The notes: generated from the sequence alone by a model not told the origin. Positions 7,361 through 45,214 are shown, numbered from the stretch's first letter. The stretch: DNA of 51,094 bases from a virus (IMGVR_UViG_3300009597_000017:1-51094); one strand, 5' to 3'. Numbers and translations are program-made.

Positions 7361-7930
7361 TCAGTTCATTTTCAAAGCTGCTTTGCGTACTCGGTTCAGT
7401 CGGGGAATCCAGACTTGAACAGTAAACCACGGGAAGCGACTTGACTCGCCCTTGTTGCGAGAATCTTTGGCGTATTCCAAAACGCGCTGAAAACAAAGCT
7501 CGTCGATTAGCTTCGGCACGTCGCGCAATTTCGAATTCAGCGCCGTTTGGGTCTTCGGCCCCCAAGCAGCGTCGTCGGGGACGCCGACTGCGCGTTGAAG
7601 AATTTGAATAGCCGTCCCGCTGCCTTGATTTACGCTTGAATCAAACAAGACATAGGCGACTCCTGTAGGAACATAATCGCCCTTAATCGGAACCCAATAC
7701 TCGGCGTTGTAAACCCACTCGGCGTGTTGCCGAGTGAAATCACGAACGTAGCGCGGATACGCATTATACTTCGGCTTGTCGCGCATTGTGCTCCACGCCC
7801 GTTGACTAATGCCCCAATTAGTCTCGCCGCCACCATCGCCGGGGATGTTGGCGTATCCAGACGGATTGCCGGGAAGACCAACCCCCTCGTCGATGAAGAC
7901 GAGATTCATGAGGTCAGTAAAGCGCGGCAT
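7361..7930 (-). CDS. Endolysin, glycoside hydrolase family 108
   Basis: EG...GYAN.PGD.GGETNWGIS, YW, FDSSVNQG, LQRAVGV motifs. Confidence 0.9.
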   Translation of the reverse strand: MPRFTDLMNLVFIDEGVGLPGNPSGYANIPGDGGGETNWGISQRAWSTMRDKPKYNAYPRYVRDFTRQHAEWVYNAEYWVPIKGDYVPTGVAYVLFDSSVNQGSGTAIQILQRAVGVPDDAAWGPKTQTALNSKLRDVPKLIDELCFQRVLEYAKDSRNKGESSRFPWFTVQVWIPRLNRVRKAALKMN

Positions 7931-36175: not shown

Positions 36176-36177
36176 AG

Positions 36178-36253
36178 TTGCAGGTGTAGGAGTCGAACCT
36201 ACGAAGCCACGGATTCAAAGTCCGGGTACAAGTGCCGACATTGTAATCCTGCA
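36178..36253 (-). tRNA. tRNA-Gln(UUG)
   Basis: Cloverleaf; loop CT-TTG-AA; GTTCGACTC. Confidence 0.8.
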
Positions 36254-36304
36254 ATGTACTGACTCGCCGATTCGGCGAATCAGTGATTAATACTGTATTA
36301 AGAG

Positions 36305-36377
36305 CAGATCGCCAAGGAATCGAACCCTGTGGATACTCGTTTTGGAGACGAGCGCTCGCCCGGTGAGCTTGCGACCT
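36305..36377 (-). tRNA. tRNA-Trp(CCA)
   Basis: CTCGT-CT-CCA-AA-ACGAG; T-arm. Confidence 0.85.
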
Positions 36378-36411: not shown

Positions 36412-37098
36412 TTATGGAATCTCTACAACATTGCCAGCACCAAGCGTAACAGCGGCAGTACGCGCAAGAGCGCGACCACACAGCGAGGCACGAGCGTTGA
36501 ACGTAATGCTTGCATATGCCAGAATGTTGCCCTTGATCTTTGAATCAGTGCCGAGAGTCGCTGAACTGCCGACTAGCCAGAATACATTCTTGGCAGAAGC
36601 GCCGTTTTGCAGCTTGACCGAACCAGCAATAGTCAACGACGAGCCAGCCTTGAAGACATAGACTCCATCGCCATCCAGCGTCAAATCGCCGGTTAGACCA
36701 ATCGACGATGGCGCACAATAGACGCCAGAACTCAAGACTTGACCGCCTAGATCAGATGTAATCGTCGCAGAACACGGCAAATCGCCGAGTACGCGCATAG
36801 CAAGTCGCAAGTCGTCTTGGGCCTTTGCAGCAACAGCGTCGCCCAAATGCTTCTCGCCGCTCAATTCGCACGGACCAAAGCCAGTAAGAGCTTCGCCCGG
36901 CGAGATGCCGATTGAACCATCGACTTGACCGCCGGTTACGCAAGTGACTGTCGAACCGGCAAGGATTGCAAAGCCGCTAGACGCTCCAAGGAATTCCTTG
37001 GCCGGCGGCTGTGGCGGCAAAACGTCGTCAGGACCGAGATTATGCTCGCAGCCAAATGCCAGCAAGCACGCGGCGATTAGTGAGTAGAACTTCAACAT
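36412..37098 (-). CDS. Ice-binding protein (DUF3494) lipoprotein
   Basis: Lipobox-like LAFGC; FAILAGSTVT, GISPG, AQDDL, GVY, NVFWLVGSSATLGT, GNILA..SIT, GRALARTAAVTL. Confidence 0.9.
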   Translation of the reverse strand: MLKFYSLIAACLLAFGCEHNLGPDDVLPPQPPAKEFLGASSGFAILAGSTVTCVTGGQVDGSIGISPGEALTGFGPCELSGEKHLGDAVAAKAQDDLRLAMRVLGDLPCSATITSDLGGQVLSSGVYCAPSSIGLTGDLTLDGDGVYVFKAGSSLTIAGSVKLQNGASAKNVFWLVGSSATLGTDSKIKGNILAYASITFNARASLCGRALARTAAVTLGAGNVVEIP

Positions 37099-38132
37099 TA
37101 CGAACCAACCTTTCGCAACTCAACACGACGATTCAATGGATTGTCACCTTCACGCGCTTCAGGGAATCGCGGCTGCGATTCTCCATAGCCAACGGCGTTC
37201 ATTCGACTGGCAGAAACGCCGCGGGACGCCAAGTAATTCTGAACAGATTCAGCACGAGCTTGGCTCAGCGCCTGATTGTACAACGTCGAGCCAATGCTTG
37301 ACGTGTGGCCAGCGATTTCAAACTTGACGCTCAACCACTGACTCTTGTTCAAGGCATCGGCGACACGATCAAGAATGTCCATAGCGGCAGAAGTCAACTC
37401 AGGAGAGTCGAATTCAAAATTCACGCCTTCAAGAACGAGCGTGTCTTTGATCTCAACCGTGGCAGGAGCGCAATCGCATAGAATGCGCACAGTGTCTGGC
37501 TTAGACGGCGCGTACTGAATGGCTGGCTTTTCGCGACCGTTCGTAAAGAGCGACAAACCGACGATCAACGAGTTGTTCCAAGCCGTCTTGGCGTTTGGCA
37601 ATTCGGCGAAGTGTTCAGCCGCGCGTCGAGCCTCGACCTTGAACATCACATACTTGCTCAAAGCAAGACGGAAACCAGCGCCGTAGAACGCGCCCCAAGT
37701 CGGATGCGTAACGTTGCCATTTCCAGTTACGCGAGTGAATTGAGTGCCGCCAGAAACAAATGGCGAGAACCGCGCATTCACATTGGCGGTCAGCGTCAAA
37801 TCGGCCGAAGGAGTCAAGAACTTAACTTCGCTACCATGCAGTGGCTTATAGCCAAAGGCGCCGAAGTTATTAAACGAGCGTCCACCGATTACGCCAACGC
37901 CGAATTGCACGTGCCGATTGACATTATAGCCGACTCGCGCGCCGGCAGCCGGAACGAACTGATTCTTGTTCCCGTTCGCGGCGAAGCTAGTGCTCAAAAA
38001 GTCAATCAAGTGCTTGTCGAAGTAATACGCGCCGACGCCAGCCGAATATTCAAAACTCCCCTCGCTGCGCTGAGCGGCGAGTGGAACGGCTAGACCGAGG
38101 CAAAGCAGGATTGTACAAAAGAGTTTAAACAT
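37098..38132 (-). CDS. ompA: OmpA-family outer membrane protein (beta-barrel plus peptidoglycan-binding domain)
   Basis: Signal peptide, alternating beta strands, VNFEFDS, IAGHTS, NQALSQARAESV, GYGE, NRRVE. Confidence 0.92.
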   Translation of the reverse strand: MFKLFCTILLCLGLAVPLAAQRSEGSFEYSAGVGAYYFDKHLIDFLSTSFAANGNKNQFVPAAGARVGYNVNRHVQFGVGVIGGRSFNNFGAFGYKPLHGSEVKFLTPSADLTLTANVNARFSPFVSGGTQFTRVTGNGNVTHPTWGAFYGAGFRLALSKYVMFKVEARRAAEHFAELPNAKTAWNNSLIVGLSLFTNGREKPAIQYAPSKPDTVRILCDCAPATVEIKDTLVLEGVNFEFDSPELTSAAMDILDRVADALNKSQWLSVKFEIAGHTSSIGSTLYNQALSQARAESVQNYLASRGVSASRMNAVGYGESQPRFPEAREGDNPLNRRVELRKVGS

Positions 38133-38217: not shown

Positions 38218-38289
38218 TGCAGTGCCTAGGAATCGAACCTAGTCTTCCTGCGTGTCGAACAGGTGTATTCTCCAACCTACGCGCACTGC
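38218..38289 (-). tRNA. tRNA-Val(GAC), C33
   Basis: CCTGT-TC-GAC-AC-GCAGG; A73. Confidence 0.8.
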
Positions 38290-38302
38290 GGCAAATTTAG
38301 AG

Positions 38303-38374
38303 TGGAGTAGAGGGGAGTCGAACCCCCGACTGCGGTTTGCGGGACCGCCGGTTTCCCGGTTAACCTACAACCCC
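38303..38374 (-). tRNA. tRNA-Ala(CGC), C33
   Basis: G3:U70; GCGGT-CC-CGC-AA-ACCGC. Confidence 0.85.
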
Positions 38375-38386
38375 ATATTCAAAAAG

Positions 38387-38457
38387 TGGAGCGTTAGGGA
38401 TTCGAACCCTAGACTTTTGCATGCCATGCAAATGCGTTCCCACTACGCCAATGCCCC
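38387..38457 (-). tRNA. tRNA-Ala(GGC)
   Basis: G3:U70; TTTGC-AT-GGC-AT-GCAAA. Confidence 0.9.
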
Positions 38458-38460
38458 AAT

Positions 38461-38692
38461 TTGACTCAACGCGTAATAGCCGCGCTTCTGTACCTATTCC
38501 CAACATCTGTCTAAGCCCCAACCCGACGTTCTCTAGGGTCAAGCAATCGTCTGTTTGGGTTGCTGCGTTGCATCGCCTTGGGTCTTGCCGTCTTTCGACA
38601 GCGCGTGTACCATCGCGCAAAGCGACTCCCCATTGCAGGCGCGAACTTCCTCGGAGGGGTGGGCCTCCGCGTTGGGCTGCGCGTTGAATCAA
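38461..38692 (-). ncRNA. rnpB: Minimal RNase P RNA (catalytic domain, reduced specificity domain)
   Basis: CR-I GAGGAAGTTCGCGC, CR-IV TAGACAGATG, CR-V ACAGAAGCGCGGCTAT; P1-P5 pairings form, P4 with bulged U. Confidence 0.8.
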
Positions 38693-38694
38693 AA

Positions 38695-38766
38695 CTGAGG
38701 CGCTTGGACTCGAACCAAGATTTCATGGCTTAACAGGCCAGCGAGTTGCCGTTACCCTACACCCCA
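38695..38766 (-). tRNA. tRNA-Asn(GUU)
   Basis: TGGC-CT-GTT-AA-GCCA; G73. Confidence 0.9.
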
Positions 38767-38859
38767 AGGTTTAATGCCATCATGCTCCACGATGTGACAA
38801 TCGTCGCATATTCTTCGCACGACCGCGCTTCGCCTTCTCAAGATTCGTCAATGGCATAG

Positions 38860-38932
38860 TTGGAACGCAAGGGGTCGAACCTTGACTTTCGTGGTTCAGA
38901 GCCACGCGTGTTGCCGGTTACACCACGTTCCA
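38860..38932 (-). tRNA. tRNA-Gln(CUG)
   Basis: CGTGG-CT-CTG-AA-CCACG. Confidence 0.9.
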
Positions 38933-38942
38933 AGGAAGAAAG

Positions 38943-39016
38943 ACTCGCCAATGGGATTCGAACCCATAGCCTACGCCTTCGCAGGGCGTTGCTCATTCCA
39001 ATTGAGCTTCGGCGAG
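38943..39016 (-). tRNA. tRNA-Arg(GCG)
   Basis: ACGCC-CT-GCG-AA-GGCGT. Confidence 0.9.
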
Positions 39017-39087
39017 TTGAATGACATGCAACATTTATCATGGGGTCACAGTAGCTTTCGCCACGCTTAGCGCTTGCATGTCAAGAG

Positions 39088-39159
39088 TCTCGTCGGAGAG
39101 AGTCGAACTCTCACTGCGTGGTTCGAAGCCACGCCGTCTATCCGTTAGCTTACAACGAG
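39088..39159 (-). tRNA. tRNA-Arg(UCG)
   Basis: CGTGG-CT-TCG-AA-CCACG. Confidence 0.85.
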
Positions 39160-39163
39160 AAAG

Positions 39164-39236
39164 TCGGAGGGGTTGGATTCGAACCAACAACGCCTTGGGC
39201 TTCAACCAAGCGCTCTACCATTGGAGCTACCCACCG
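39164..39236 (-). tRNA. tRNA-Phe(GAA)
   Basis: CTTGG-TT-GAA-GC-CCAAG. Confidence 0.9.
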
Positions 39237-39242
39237 AAGAAG

Positions 39243-39316
39243 CGCGACTTGCCGGATTCGAACCGGCGATGTTCTCCGTGACAGGGAGACGAGGACGGCC
39301 ACTCCTCTAAAATCGC
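39243..39316 (-). tRNA. tRNA-Asp(GUC)
   Basis: TCTCC-CT-GTC-AC-GGAGA; G73. Confidence 0.9.
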
Positions 39317-39320
39317 AGAA

Positions 39321-39425
39321 TTACTTGCGCTTAAAAATCTCGTCGATGAAATTGCGAACGAGCCAAAACGCGCAACAAACGACGATTAATAAAATTGCAA
39401 CAGCAACAACGTGTTCCATAGACAT
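39321..39425 (-). CDS. Possible small membrane peptide inside the tRNA array
   Basis: MSMEHVVAVAILLIVVCCAFWLVRNFIDEIFKRK exactly fills the spacer; no clear SD. Confidence 0.35.
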   Translation of the reverse strand: MSMEHVVAVAILLIVVCCAFWLVRNFIDEIFKRK

Positions 39426-39431
39426 TAAGAG

Positions 39432-39513
39432 CGGAAACGGAGGGAATCGAACCCTCGACGCGTAAGCGCAACCGTTTTCGAGACGGGTTCCTCGACCAGC
39501 CGGACCATTTTCC
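39432..39513 (-). tRNA. tRNA-Ser(CGA)
   Basis: CCGT-CT-CGA-AA-ACGG; long variable arm; G73. Confidence 0.85.
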
Positions 39514-39618
39514 AAGCCAGGGTTTAAGGAGGGTCTGGTACCTCCAAGTCGCGCTACCCGATTTCAGTCAGGCTATCTAGATCACCCAACCGGCCTTTTG
39601 GCGGGGCCTCGCGTCATA

Positions 39619-39701
39619 CGGATTATGGAGGATTCGAACCTCCGGTGCGTTAGCACGGCGGTTTAGCAAACCGCTGCAATAAGCCTCTCTGCCAACAATC
39701 C
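39619..39701 (-). tRNA. tRNA-Ser(GCU)
   Basis: GCGGT-TT-GCT-AA-ACCGC; long variable arm. Confidence 0.9.
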
Positions 39702-39762
39702 ACAGCCCGTTTCACTTTAGCTTTACTCGCATGGAAACGGTTCAGCATAAAGAACGCGATAG

Positions 39763-39845
39763 TGGTGGAAGTACGAGTCGAACGTACAGGGGGATTAACC
39801 GGCGCTTTTACAGAGCGTTGGACCTGCCAATGTACCAATCCCACC
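39763..39845 (-). tRNA. tRNA-Tyr(GUA)
   Basis: CGCT-CT-GTA-AA-AGCG; long variable region. Confidence 0.85.
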
Positions 39846-39848
39846 AAG

Positions 39849-39920
39849 AGCCAAGGTTGGGTCTCGAACCCAAGATACCTAGGTACGAACTAGGTAGTTT
39901 ACCAACTAACTTACCGAGGC
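39849..39920 (-). tRNA. tRNA-Thr(CGU)
   Basis: CCTAG-TT-CGT-AC-CTAGG; two acceptor mismatches. Confidence 0.8.
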
Positions 39921-40020
39921 ATAACAGACACCTAGCAGAGCATCGCTGCTGTCCCATTGTACCGATGGTTGGGTCAGGGCTCCAAGAACTAGTATCCCAT
40001 CCTGACGTTAAGGTGTCTAG

Positions 40021-40095
40021 TCCGCCCTGGTGGCTTTGCTCCACCCGCCTCCGGTGTATCAGACCGACGCTCTTGACTGAATGAGCTAAGGGCGA
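40021..40095 (-). tRNA. tRNA-Ile(GAU), atypical T-loop
   Basis: TCGGT-CT-GAT-AC-ACCGG; T-loop AGCAAAG. Confidence 0.8.
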
Positions 40096-40107
40096 AAAGG
40101 TACTAAG

Positions 40108-40179
40108 TGCATCGCCAGGGTAACGATCCCCGTTCTAGTGGTTAAGAGCCACTTGCTTCACCGTTAAAGCTTGCGGTGC
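40108..40179 (-). tRNA. tRNA-Lys(CUU), atypical T-loop
   Basis: AGTGG-CT-CTT-AA-CCACT; T-loop ATCGTTA. Confidence 0.85.
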
Positions 40180-40182
40180 ATA

Positions 40183-40313
40183 TGCTTTGGCAACGAGCCT
40201 GCCCATCTGACGAATAATAAGAGACCTTCGCTAGGTTACCCCTACTTATTTATCTCTTAGTGGGAGTTGAACCCACAAGGCGTTAGGTAGGTAACACCAA
40301 ACGTGCCAAAGCA
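40183..40313 (-). ncRNA. Unknown 131-nt structured RNA with an internal T-arm
   Basis: Closing stem TGCTTTGGCA/TGCCAAAGCA; GTGGG-TTCAACT-CCCAC next to TAAGAGA/TCTCTTA. Confidence 0.5.
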
Positions 40314-40315
40314 AG

Positions 40316-40390
40316 TGCCCAACGGGGGATTCGAACCCCCATGCCGCTGTTTCTAAGACAGCGAGGTATACCAATTCCCATCAATCGGGC
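40316..40390 (-). tRNA. tRNA-Leu(UAG), short variable loop
   Basis: GCTGT-CT-TAG-AA-ACAGC; 5-nt variable loop; A73. Confidence 0.85.
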
Positions 40391-40399
40391 CTATACTTC

Positions 40400-40427
40400 A
40401 ATATAGTCAATATTACTGTATAGTCAA
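40400..40427 (-). promoter_or_regulatory. Internal promoter of the tRNA array
   Basis: TTGACT-N16-TATATT in an AT-rich spacer with tandem TATAGTCAATA. Confidence 0.55.
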
Positions 40428-40447
40428 TAGTACAATAACAACTATAG

Positions 40448-40519
40448 AGCTAACACCAGGAATCGAACCCAGCCTAGTTGCTTACCAAGCAACCGTGCCA
40501 CCAACAACACTTCACCGAC
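40448..40519 (-). tRNA. tRNA-Thr(GGU), weak acceptor stem
   Basis: GTTGC-TT-GGT-AA-GCAAC; acceptor mostly G:U pairs. Confidence 0.7.
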
Positions 40520-40540
40520 TTGTTGAATCAATGAGTCAAG

Positions 40541-40614
40541 AGCCGAATGTTGGAATCGAACCAACTCCCATCCGCATTACAAGTGCGGTGCGCGGCCATT
40601 TGCGCCAATCCGAC
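40541..40614 (-). tRNA. tRNA-Thr(UGU)
   Basis: CCGCA-CT-TGT-AA-TGCGG. Confidence 0.9.
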
Positions 40615-40694
40615 TAGAGTCACCTTGCGGGCCGCTACCCCCGCTCCGCCCCGGCCAGCCCGGCGTGCAGCGATTACACCATCGGTGATTTAAG

Positions 40695-40776
40695 TGCAGC
40701 GAAGGGGATTCGAACCCCCACGTCTTTCGACAGTGGTTTTTGAGACCACCGCGTCTGCCAGTTCCGCCAAAGCTGC
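40695..40776 (-). tRNA. tRNA-Leu(CAA)
   Basis: GTGGT-CT-CAA-AA-ACCAC; long variable arm. Confidence 0.9.
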
Positions 40777-40781
40777 AAAAA

Positions 40782-40853
40782 TGACGCGGTCGGGAATCGA
40801 ACCCGAGTTGATCGCTTGAGAGGCGACTTTCCGAACCACTAGAAGACGGCGTC
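40782..40853 (-). tRNA. tRNA-Glu(CUC)
   Basis: GTCGC-CT-CTC-AA-GCGAT. Confidence 0.9.
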
Positions 40854-40857
40854 AAAA

Positions 40858-40933
40858 TGGCGGGGGTCGGATTCGAACCGACGTCATGTGGCTTATGAGA
40901 CCACCGCTGAAACCACTCCAACACCACCCCGCT
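40858..40933 (-). tRNA. tRNA-Met(CAU), 1:72 mismatch (initiator-like)
   Basis: GTGGT-CT-CAT-AA-GCCAC; A1/C72. Confidence 0.85.
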
Positions 40934-40962
40934 ATTTGAAAAAAAAAAACAAAAAAAAAAAG

Positions 40963-41034
40963 TCCAGCCGCTAGGATTCGAACCTAGAACTCGTCGCTTA
41001 AAAGGCGTGTGCGATGCCGTTTCGCCACGACTGG
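40963..41034 (-). tRNA. tRNA-Lys(UUU)
   Basis: CGC-CT-TTT-AA-GCG; T-arm. Confidence 0.8.
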
Positions 41035-41112
41035 ATATTCAACAACTCAACGCTGTCTATACACTTGGGAATGACCCAACGTTCGTGGCGCCCACAATAG
41101 ACAGCGTCGGAA

Positions 41113-41185
41113 TTGCTCAGCAGGGAATCGAACCCTGATTGTTTCTGTGTGTAGGACAGACGCCATACCACTAGGCGACTGAGCA
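41113..41185 (-). tRNA. tRNA-Val(UAC), C33
   Basis: TCTGT-CC-TAC-AC-ACAGA. Confidence 0.85.
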
Positions 41186-41189
41186 AAAG

Positions 41190-41260
41190 TGCGGTAAGCG
41201 AGAATCGGACTCGCCCGTCTGCCTTGGCAAGGCAGCATGCCACCACAACATTTCTACCGC
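41190..41260 (-). tRNA. tRNA-Gly(GCC)
   Basis: CTGCC-TT-GCC-AA-GGCAG; T-loop TCCGATT. Confidence 0.85.
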
Positions 41261-41388
41261 GAGCGCCGTTTATTTAATGTCAACACGGCAAAATGACAGA
41301 GCGACGCGCGTCGGCGTACACTCAAAAATCTGCGCCAAATCGGGGGCACCATTGCGAAGATGTCTTTAAGAGCGTCGCAATCGCTCTA

Positions 41389-41459
41389 AGTCGCAAGCGG
41401 GAATCGAACCCGCCTCGCCAGCTTGGAAGGCTGGAACACAGCCACTATGTCACTGCGAC
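41389..41459 (-). tRNA. tRNA-Gly(UCC)
   Basis: CCAGC-CT-TCC-AA-GCTGG; U73. Confidence 0.88.
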
Positions 41460-41474
41460 GAGATCAACGAGCAA

Positions 41475-41547
41475 TACCGCTTGACGGTTCCGACCCGTCT
41501 TTTCCGGCTTGAAAGGCCGGCGTCCTAGCCAGTAGACAGAAAGCGGC
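41475..41547 (-). tRNA. tRNA-Glu(UUC)
   Basis: CCGGC-CT-TTC-AA-GCCGG; T-loop GTCGGAA. Confidence 0.85.
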
Positions 41548-41649
41548 GTGGAGTGCCTAGAGCAATAAAGCTCACATTTACTGAATTGCCCGTATTTGGC
41601 CTAGGCTTCAACGGATTCAAAGCAACGCGTCTTGGCACATTTTTAAAAG

Positions 41650-41722
41650 GGTGTATGATGGGCCTCGAACCCATTCAACCGGCTTCACAGGCCGGCGCTC
41701 TACCAGTTGAGCTACAAACACC
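41650..41722 (-). tRNA. tRNA-His(GUG)
   Basis: CCGGC-CT-GTG-AA-GCCGG; G-1:C73. Confidence 0.9.
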
Positions 41723-41740
41723 ATGATGTAAAAAGGAAAG

Positions 41741-41813
41741 ACTGACATGCTGGAATCGAACCAGCCAATCGACGTTTTGCAGACGTCAGCGTTAACCGCT
41801 TCGCCAATGTCAG
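41741..41813 (-). tRNA. tRNA-Cys(GCA)
   Basis: GACGT-CT-GCA-AA-ACGTC; U73. Confidence 0.9.
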
Positions 41814-42110
41814 AAATTAAAGGGGGATATGCGCCGGCGACCGAAGTAGAAATAAAGATCACCCGCCATTGCCCAACAGTAGGCCCGCATTGCTGCGTTC
41901 ATGGACACTTCGTCAAACGAGCCACACTGTCATGGACTTTAGTAAGTGTCAAGCAAGAGTGTTAACCCTCCATTGACCGACCGATTCACCCGAAGGCAAA
42001 CCGACTACAAACGCGTTGACTAGACGATCTAAACCCCCGCCTCCAGTGAGCGGCTAACCGCCACCGGCACATACGCCCCCAGTTTTGAAGCAGTTTTAAA
42101 AGAGCAGAAG

Positions 42111-42184
42111 TCGAGATTGTTGGAATCGAACCAACCCGATGCCCCGGTTCCGAACCGGGTTGCGCACCTTGCGCACGAACCTCG
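42111..42184 (-). tRNA. tRNA-Pro(CGG), A37
   Basis: CCCGG-TT-CGG-AA-CCGGG; C1:G72, A73. Confidence 0.85.
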
Positions 42185-42262
42185 AATATGTCGCTGCGAC
42201 TGAACGGCCAGTGGCTATAAGCCGTTTAAAGAGTGAGACCGCATCTTGGCCAGCGACAAAAG

Positions 42263-42336
42263 TCGGCACTGCTGGAATCGAACCAGCCGGTTGTCCTGTT
42301 TCCAAAACAGGCGGCACACCTTGCGCCCGAGCACCG
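42263..42336 (-). tRNA. tRNA-Pro(UGG), A37
   Basis: CCTGT-TT-TGG-AA-ACAGG; C1:G72, A73. Confidence 0.85.
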
Positions 42337-44872: not shown

Positions 44873-45214
44873 TTGACTAAATCTCGTAGCGAACTTCGGC
44901 GGTATTGGCGAACACGAAATCGCGAGTATCGCCGAAGTCATCGCGAAGTTATTCGGAAACTGGAAGCTAAATGGTATGCCAATGCAAAAGCTGCGGCGTA
45001 CGTGCTCCTAGGCGGCCGATGTAAGTGGTGTGGATTCAGCGACGTTCGTGCATTGCAAATCGACCATAAAAAGGCGATTGGAGATGCAAAACGTCGACAG
45101 CAGAATGAGCGCGGTGTCGCATTATACCGCCGCATCCTGAAACGTCCAGAGTTGTATCAATTGCTCTGTGCCAACTGCAACTGGATTAAGCGCGTCGAGA
45201 ACGCGGAACACTAA
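44873..45214 (+). CDS. HNH endonuclease
   Basis: LGGRCKWCG, LQIDH, QLLCANCNWIK. Confidence 0.85.
   Translation: MTKSRSELRRYWRTRNREYRRSHREVIRKLEAKWYANAKAAAYVLLGGRCKWCGFSDVRALQIDHKKAIGDAKRRQQNERGVALYRRILKRPELYQLLCANCNWIKRVENAEH

Follow-up and report, generated by a model that had tools for sequence, protein, structure and literature searches.

The long array of transfer RNA (tRNA) genes in the phage record IMGVR_UViG_3300009597_000017 of the IMG/VR database raises the question of what the long spacers between these genes are. The record is complete-looking, and its whole stretch of 51,094 base pairs (bp) is the window of this analysis. The main array (38218-42336) lies on the minus strand, as do all the array features of the window given below, and contains 30 tRNA genes, 28 found by ARAGORN and 2 by Rfam only. 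Eight of its spacers had been described in an initial annotation as closed, folded small RNAs freed by tRNA processing, and these are labelled here as s1 (38774-38857), s2 (39022-39083), s3 (39926-40018), s4 (40183-40313), s5 (41049-41108), s6 (41298-41387), s7 (41553-41638) and s8 (42190-42257). We read the array, with a probability of about 0.55, as a mosaic in which a few new conserved structured RNAs are set among fast-turnover, lineage-specific hairpin fillers that would have an insulating role. The conserved set comprises s8, s3, s4, the spacer between tRNA-Ser(gct) and tRNA-Ser(cga) and an RNase P-like RNA; the probability applies jointly to the mosaic and to these being structured RNAs under selection.

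Conserved structured RNAs of the array

Relatives of the phage were found through the major head protein, giving 12 viral loci and 35 metagenome loci (referred to by L numbers where needed). The same tRNA order is kept in about 13 distinct arrays, and the spacers come and go. An all-against-all blastn of 144 gaps from 14 arrays was combined with a direct blastn of all loci. When the 12 viral loci were first compared by blastn with the eight spacers there was no match, homologues of s8 and s4 surfaced after the metagenome scan, and an alignment-based scan of viral contigs yielded no additional locus. By blastn s8 has homologues in L028 (86% identity), L006, L037 and others, and s4 in L021 alone. 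No blastn homologue was found for s3, yet its position is occupied by a spacer of 92-108 nucleotides (nt) in most arrays. Conservation, a check proposed with the initial annotation, was thus found for s3 and s8 (with covariation) and for s4 (one homologue), and for none of s1, s2, s5, s6 and s7, which have no homologue among the 144 gaps of the 14 arrays or in the blastn of all loci. No spacer has a second copy within the window by blastn. Also, the DNA contigs of four sequencing runs that aligned to the array are identical to the window, and therefore offer no variation to read. Rfam 15 searched over 8 kb gave no family overlapping any of the eight spacers, neither at the gathering threshold nor at E<=10, which bears out the initial statement that no known family could be matched; local Rfam rescans, made for s3 and s4 only, returned noise-level rows. 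Megablast of the array found no match in GenBank phages and in a blastn search with the complete array 50,697 phage records yielded tRNA-sized matches only. By these comparisons neither Rfam nor the GenBank phages contain the families described here. It may be noted that MAFFT alignments of some spacers misplaced the terminal helices and were replaced by subsets and covariance models.

The first of these elements is s8, a conserved bulged hairpin. Its covariance model (R1) was built from 7 sequences and searched against 18 sources, where it gave 15 matches at E<=1, of which 14 lie on the tRNA strand with E<=0.0034 and the one weak plus-strand row is probably noise; in the window it scores 68.8 bits at 42190-42258. 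The fold consists of a terminal helix P1, a 5-nt internal loop on the 5′ side, a 3-bp helix GAU/GUC, a 3-nt bulge on the 3′ side, a helix P2 and a large apical loop. Pairing is kept in 98.3% of 177 cells, with changes on both sides in 10 of 13 pairs, and the covariation score was reached by none of 500 shuffles, slid controls being 24-60% paired. The conserved triplets GAU and GUC pair together and become GCU and AGC in L046. Two conserved G-U pairs are also present, and pairing in the tRNA-sense RNA is therefore favoured. The internal loop resembles loop A of the hairpin ribozyme, and s8 was considered as such a ribozyme; this was rejected on the pairing and covariation of the triplets and on the lack of an Rfam match. 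A pattern scan of IMG/VR for s8 gave 113 matching stretches, approximately the number estimated by chance, of which 80 loci were run through the model, and the single match among these 80 was the known L006 contig, so that no s8 was found outside this phage group. The element occurs as a single copy per array at the array start, either just after the first tRNA (the window) or just before it (L038, L016, L017 and L008). The last of these, a related phage of similar genome size, has 3 tRNAs only and a weak s8-like element (7536-7608) upstream of the first. On the comparative evidence s8 is a real undescribed structured RNA, and since its position is strictly promoter-proximal, a role in cis on the transcript is suggested, be it as a leader structure, in read-through or in processing.

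A second covarying element is s3, a four-way-junction RNA immediately 3′ of tRNA-Ile(gat), where its model scores 69.7 bits at 39924-40020. This model (R2) was built from 5 sequences with the structure assigned by eye and matches 8 arrays, always directly after tRNA-Ile(gat). Pairing is found in 97.9% of 193 cells, 21 of the 25 pairs have compensatory changes and 0 of 500 shuffles reach the score. In L038 the same architecture is seen by eye, yet the model does not report it. The covariation marks s3 as a real undescribed structured RNA, for which we propose no specific function.

The third element (38466-38687, 222 nt) lies between tRNA-Asn and tRNA-Ala, outside the coordinates of the initial annotation and in the same array. 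It aligns to the archaeal RNase P model RF00373 with 55.4 bits (E 4e-15 on the local stretch, gathering threshold 84), spanning model positions 1-288 with the core blocks matched and 87 positions of the specificity domain reduced to 12 nt. Six arrays have a homologue in the gap that follows tRNA-Asn, and the top Rfam match in relatives is RNase P as well, namely truncated type T (RF02357, gathering 60) in L012 (30.2 bits) and L005 (18.3 bits), and archaeal RNase P in L006 (33 bits against the gathering 84). Covariation was assessed on a plain MAFFT alignment, not fitted to structure, with a P1/P2/P3/P4 structure written by us. All 186 of 186 cells are paired and 17 of 31 pairs are compensatory, both-side changes being found in 8/8 pairs of P1, 6/6 of P2 and 1/3 at the base of P3, and the 7 pairs of P4, which have a single unpaired (bulged) U between them, do not vary in any of the 6 homologues. 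Types A, B and M have a specificity domain and type T does not; the domain is missing from 38466-38687, which by its sequence is consistent only with a truncated, type-T-like form. The element therefore resembles type T and archaeal RNase P RNA in its P1-P4 core, its conserved core blocks and its lack of a specificity domain, and differs from them in its sub-gathering scores, in being phage-encoded and in lying inside a tRNA array. The stretch had no match in GenBank phages, and a literature search brought up no description of an RNase P RNA encoded by a phage. Neither an RnpA gene nor a CCA-adding enzyme gene is present in this phage's record, and the phage host is probably Gram-negative.

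The spacer s4 (131 nt) is arranged as a 10-bp closing stem, a variable-arm-like (V-like) hairpin, a canonical T arm, a closed long "acceptor-like" hairpin and a GG-containing stretch. Its homologue in L021 has 85% identity over 131 nt, and the differences fall mostly in loops or preserve pairs, with 2 compensatory pairs and an invariant T arm. By blastn the T arm is 95% identical to the T arms of array tRNAs, and the Rfam tRNA model gives a weak partial match to the variable and T arms (11.5 bits, E 9.3). The YrlA bacterial Y RNAs are tRNA mimics whose module order is described in the available part of PMC4201824. The order of the modules in s4 agrees with that description as regards the V-like hairpin, the T arm and the closed hairpin, which are present in both the predicted and the consensus folds, and a D stem is unsupported by the L021 homologue. 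RF02553 (YrlA) does not match s4, the sole YrlA row of the 8-kb scan at E<=10 lying at 41697-41767 across tRNA-His and tRNA-Cys, and a Ro60/TROVE gene (PF05731) is absent from the 51-kb record, control genomes being positive. We therefore call s4 a putative tRNA-derived or tRNA-mimicking module and not a YrlA. The last member of the conserved set is the Ser(gct)-Ser(cga) spacer (39514-39617), which had not been flagged initially. It forms a blastn cluster with L017, L021 and L012, and 8 of its 18 predicted pairs are compensatory.

Terminal helices and lineage-specific spacers

Terminal stems exist in all eight flagged spacers, with 7-9 bp in s1, 10 in s2, 8 in s3, 10 in s4, 12 in s5, 8 in s6, 5 in s7 and 7-8 bp in s8, that of s1 being absent from its minimum-energy fold. 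Besides the stem s2 has a GAAA hairpin, s3 the four-way junction and s5 a three-way junction. With the boundaries of the initial annotation and 200 dinucleotide shuffles each, the fold z-scores were -0.23 for s1, -2.93 for s2, -0.77 for s3, -3.36 for s4, -4.39 for s5 (none of the 200 shuffles being as good), -0.50 for s6, -1.05 for s7 and -1.53 for s8. Only s2, s4 and s5 (z -2.9 to -4.4) fold clearly better than their shuffles, and the other five do not.

Boundaries chosen from a stem favour the fold, and for this reason whole gaps were also tested, from tRNA end to tRNA end, with the outer pair of the helix lying within 8 nt of both gap ends. Here the terminal stem is significant for s1 (p 0.017), s2 (p 0.003), s3, s4 and s8 (p 0.003-0.037 for all five) and not significant for s5, s6 and s7 (p 0.70 for s7). 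The failure of s5 arises because 14 nt separate its 12-bp stem from the following tRNA, more than the 8 nt that the test allows. The spacers had also been said to sit a few nt from the neighbouring tRNAs, which describes s1, s2, s3, s4 and s8 and fails on one side of the other three, where the distance is 14 nt from the end of s5 to tRNA-Lys, 37 nt from the end of s6 to tRNA-Gly and 10 nt from tRNA-His to the start of s7. On extending the test to 51 gaps of 45-150 nt from the window and four related arrays, a terminal stem at p<=0.05 was found in 18 of the 51 and a stem of at least 8 bp likewise in 18 of the 51 on the tRNA-sense strand. The corresponding control numbers are 14 and 9 for 300 coding segments picked at random from the window, and the antisense strand of the same 51 gaps gave 15 and 12, closure being stronger in sense. 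Typically 1-3 nt separate the ARAGORN 3′ end from the start of the stem, and another 2-6 nt lie between the stem and the following tRNA. Such closure by a helix is therefore a real regularity of these arrays, far above chance and reaching beyond this genome.

The five spacers for which no homologue was found are lineage-specific and differ among themselves. In s1 the terminal complementarity is significant and the overall fold is not, s2 is a hairpin module closed by 10 bp, s5 is a three-way junction closed by 12 bp, s6 has an 8-bp terminal stem that stops 37 nt short of the next tRNA, and the terminal stem of s7, with 5 bp, is no better than chance would give. ARAGORN finds no gene in any of the eight spacers, and RF00005 or a related model overlaps none of them at E<=10. 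Two relatives have 75-nt "spacers" at the position of tRNA-Lys(ctt) (L005 7556-7630 and L006 6538-6611, minus strand) that are missed by ARAGORN and by Rfam at E<=0.01 and that show, by eye, a cloverleaf with a CUU anticodon loop and a non-canonical T loop.

Proposed processing of the array and competing explanations

An encoded CCA is absent from all 353 tRNA genes of 13 arrays (the window, L002, L005, L006, L012, L017, L021, L025, L028, L029, L038, L044 and L046). The base after the ARAGORN 3′ end, which is one base beyond the Rfam end, is T in 334 of the 353, and 227 have a T just ahead of the 5′ end. In CCA-less tRNAs RNase Z/BN cuts after the discriminator and the CCA-adding enzyme completes the end, and RNase P makes the 5′ ends. 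As regards transcription, a promoter-like site (42382-42355) that is a consensus match only (11 of 12 positions) precedes Pro(tgg), the first tRNA, by about 20 nt, and an internal promoter-like site (40427-40400) lies in the AT-rich gap 40391-40447 before tRNA-Leu(tag). The sequence of this gap occurs twice in L012, at the same array position and upstream of its array. A terminator scan found no convincing minus-strand terminator within the array, which on these signals looks like one or two putative, terminator-poor transcription units. A T10-G-T11 run after tRNA-Lys(ttt) (40929-40961, minus strand) may cause termination or pausing within the array.

In the mosaic reading, the array would be a two-promoter, terminator-poor tRNA operon with non-tRNA modules interleaved. 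A host RNase Z/BN-type cut past the discriminator and an RNase P cut at the 5′ end of the next tRNA would free the spacer between them as a discrete RNA, and because the tRNAs are CCA-less and U-trailed, we infer that every spacer would be released with defined ends. The terminal helix may spare the neighbouring tRNAs from mispairing with the spacer and may keep the leaders and trailers around the cuts short and single-stranded, and in the conserved modules it would also give a stable product. The spacers s1, s2, s5, s6 and s7 would be the fast-evolving, lineage-specific hairpin fillers. The folds, the closure excess, the conservation and the covariation on which this builds are established observations. 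A number of points weigh against it. Transcription as a unit, the cut sites and cutting enzymes, the stability of the RNAs and any function in trans are things we infer. For s8 and s3 the alignments were fitted to the covariance models and consist of a small number of related sequences; the counts are strong and not independent, being inflated by shared descent. The RNase P-like RNA is below the Rfam gathering threshold in all four records tested (clan CL00002), s4 is supported by two sequences, s6 and s7 are indistinguishable from chance, and the helices that close the fillers could be unselected remnants of the acceptor stems of decayed tRNAs.

Among the rivals this last one is the strongest as regards the lineage-specific spacers: the closed spacers would be decayed or remodelled tRNA genes whose old acceptor stems are merely tolerated. 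The lengths of the spacers (60-135 nt) are tRNA-like, a gap in one array is often a tRNA in another, L005 and L006 have 75-nt spacers, cloverleaf-like by eye, in place of the tRNA-Lys(ctt) of other arrays, and s4 has a T arm with 95% identity to tRNA T arms. Set against this, none of the eight spacers is matched by a tRNA model at E<=10, blastn against the more than 300 array tRNAs gives E>=0.4 only (the s4 T arm excepted), and the terminal stems are often of 8-12 bp and not of 7. Also, the gap Val(tac)-Lys(ttt) that holds s5 is 0-15 nt long in most relatives, and the gap of s7 is likewise 0-15 nt in most or all, so these two are insertions and not decayed residents. We regard decay as an unlikely account of the set.

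Distinctly unlikely, in our estimate, is a self-sufficient RNA-processing operon, in which the phage would have its own RNase P ribozyme lacking the specificity domain and at least one of s3, s8 and the Ser-Ser spacer would be a new catalytic or accessory RNA working with it. Such an accessory RNA might, for example, present the CCA-less, U-trailed pre-tRNAs to the truncated ribozyme in cis, or might keep RNA polymerase reading through the approximately 30 hairpin-plus-U sites.

The initial annotation had gone further, and held that the array is a polycistronic non-coding RNA operon releasing a set of undescribed small RNAs that act as decoys, aptamers or antitoxin mimics. The promoter-like sites, the lack of a convincing terminator and the CCA-less, U-trailed tRNAs agree with an operon, itself an extrapolation from these signs. 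The set shrinks to s3 and s8, with covariation, and s4, with one homologue, as against five spacers that have no homologue, three of them folding like shuffles. That most of the eight are functional small RNAs acting in trans after release by tRNA processing we consider very unlikely. It would accord with the closure excess, with the good folds of s2, s4 and s5 and with the conservation of s3, s8 and s4, but five of the eight have no homologue in 13 related arrays of the same tRNA order, s1, s6 and s7 fold like their shuffles, the placement of s8 as one promoter-proximal copy in each array fits a cis role better, and no partner gene such as TROVE was found in the record. Nothing that was tested points to decoys, aptamers or antitoxin mimics. 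The observation made initially is therefore partly confirmed, and its interpretation partly supported.

Some spacers could instead be self-cleaving ribozymes, HDV-like (hepatitis delta virus-like) theta ribozymes or a new class, that make tRNA 3′ ends. This would suit their place directly after CCA-less tRNAs, the conserved unpaired nucleotides between the covarying helices of s8 and s3, and the precedent in the available part of PMC10879173. We hold it to be highly improbable: no ribozyme family and no HDV-type row was found at E<=10 (a theta-specific model was not checked for in Rfam 15), the helices begin 1-3 nt past the tRNA and would leave no room for an HDV-type P1 strand upstream of the closing helix, and the "loop" triplets of s8 pair together and covary. 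That the inverted repeats act as DNA, in recombination, in replication or as ends of mobile elements, is hardly credible, for although the antisense strand has its own excess (15 of 51 gaps at p<=0.05) and spacer presence varies between arrays, stems of at least 8 bp number 18 in sense and 12 in antisense, the opposite strand would have C-A mismatches in place of the conserved G-U pairs, the window contains each spacer just once and the s8 model is confined to this phage group among the 80 pattern-matched viral loci.

Other features, known systems and implications

Several other features of the array and its surroundings may be given here. Among its 15 gaps of at least 45 nt, one holds the internal promoter-like site, one a 32-codon open reading frame and one the RNase P-like RNA, and the initial description of "most" long spacers as closed, folded small RNAs is too strong. 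The open reading frame (39321-39419) lies inside the Ser(cga)-Asp spacer and would encode a hydrophobic, membrane-span-like peptide; it has no clear ribosome-binding site by eye and no blastn homologue. The Pro(cgg)-Cys spacer (41814-42109, 296 nt), which was not flagged initially, has a long-range closing stem and a z-score of -4.19 with 0 of 200 shuffles as good, and gave no blastn homologue in the arrays or loci of relatives and no Rfam match. The two Rfam-only tRNAs lie at 41475-41547 (RF00005, 42.4 bits, with a homologous stretch in L006 and L044), whose anticodon loop reads by eye as Glu-UUC, and at 40448-40519 (29.3 bits). As ARAGORN missed both, two seemingly long gaps are actually shorter. 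ARAGORN reports 30 tRNAs in the whole window, including Trp and Gln(ttg) at 36177-36377, past two inserted protein genes. These are an OmpA-family/beta-barrel gene and an ice-binding-like gene (36412-38132, minus strand), which interrupt the array between tRNA-Val(gac) and tRNA-Trp and to which the promoter-like site at 38202-38174 (minus strand) belongs. The major head protein gene is divergent and upstream of the array, and is immediately followed by an HNH endonuclease gene (44873-45214, plus strand).

A kind already known is the non-tRNA RNA that lies within a phage tRNA operon and is freed when the tRNAs are processed. In phage T4 the stable RNAs C and D (species 1 and 2) are non-tRNA RNAs of the tRNA cluster, co-transcribed with it and released by tRNA-processing enzymes, and the CCA-less tRNAs of T4 need host RNase BN and the CCA-adding enzyme. 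The present array is like that cluster in having predicted non-tRNA RNAs among phage tRNA genes. It differs in showing no sequence likeness to RNAs C and D (the organism tally of the blastn lacks T4 and has 2 Escherichia records, both phage Rtp) and in holding several families together with many lineage-specific hairpins. The HDV-like theta ribozymes that adjoin gut-phage tRNAs are proposed, in the available part of PMC10879173, to process 3′ trailers with less dependence on host RNases. The window spacers are likewise structured RNA beside phage tRNAs, but they match no ribozyme model and their helix geometry is unfit for this class. Hairpins in E. coli polycistronic tRNA transcripts are removed by RNase P according to the available part of PMC4176162, and so there too structured segments between or after tRNAs of one transcript are parted by RNase P cuts at tRNA 5′ ends. 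As far as that part of the paper goes, the E. coli segments are terminators or short trailers after CCA-bearing tRNAs, whereas the window spacers are multi-helix modules of 60-296 nt after CCA-less tRNAs, several of them conserved as folds.

The usual annotation of a phage tRNA cluster is one of tRNAs and junk, and here the comparison shows that several non-tRNA folded RNAs are kept in fixed places by a small phage, one of them with the core of RNase P. Most closed spacers are not conserved, and a terminal stem alone is therefore no evidence of a functional small RNA. If the RNAs are made and active, the phage would bring part of the tRNA-maturation machinery with it, and the conserved spacers would be new handles on the transcription, cutting and protection of long multi-tRNA transcripts.

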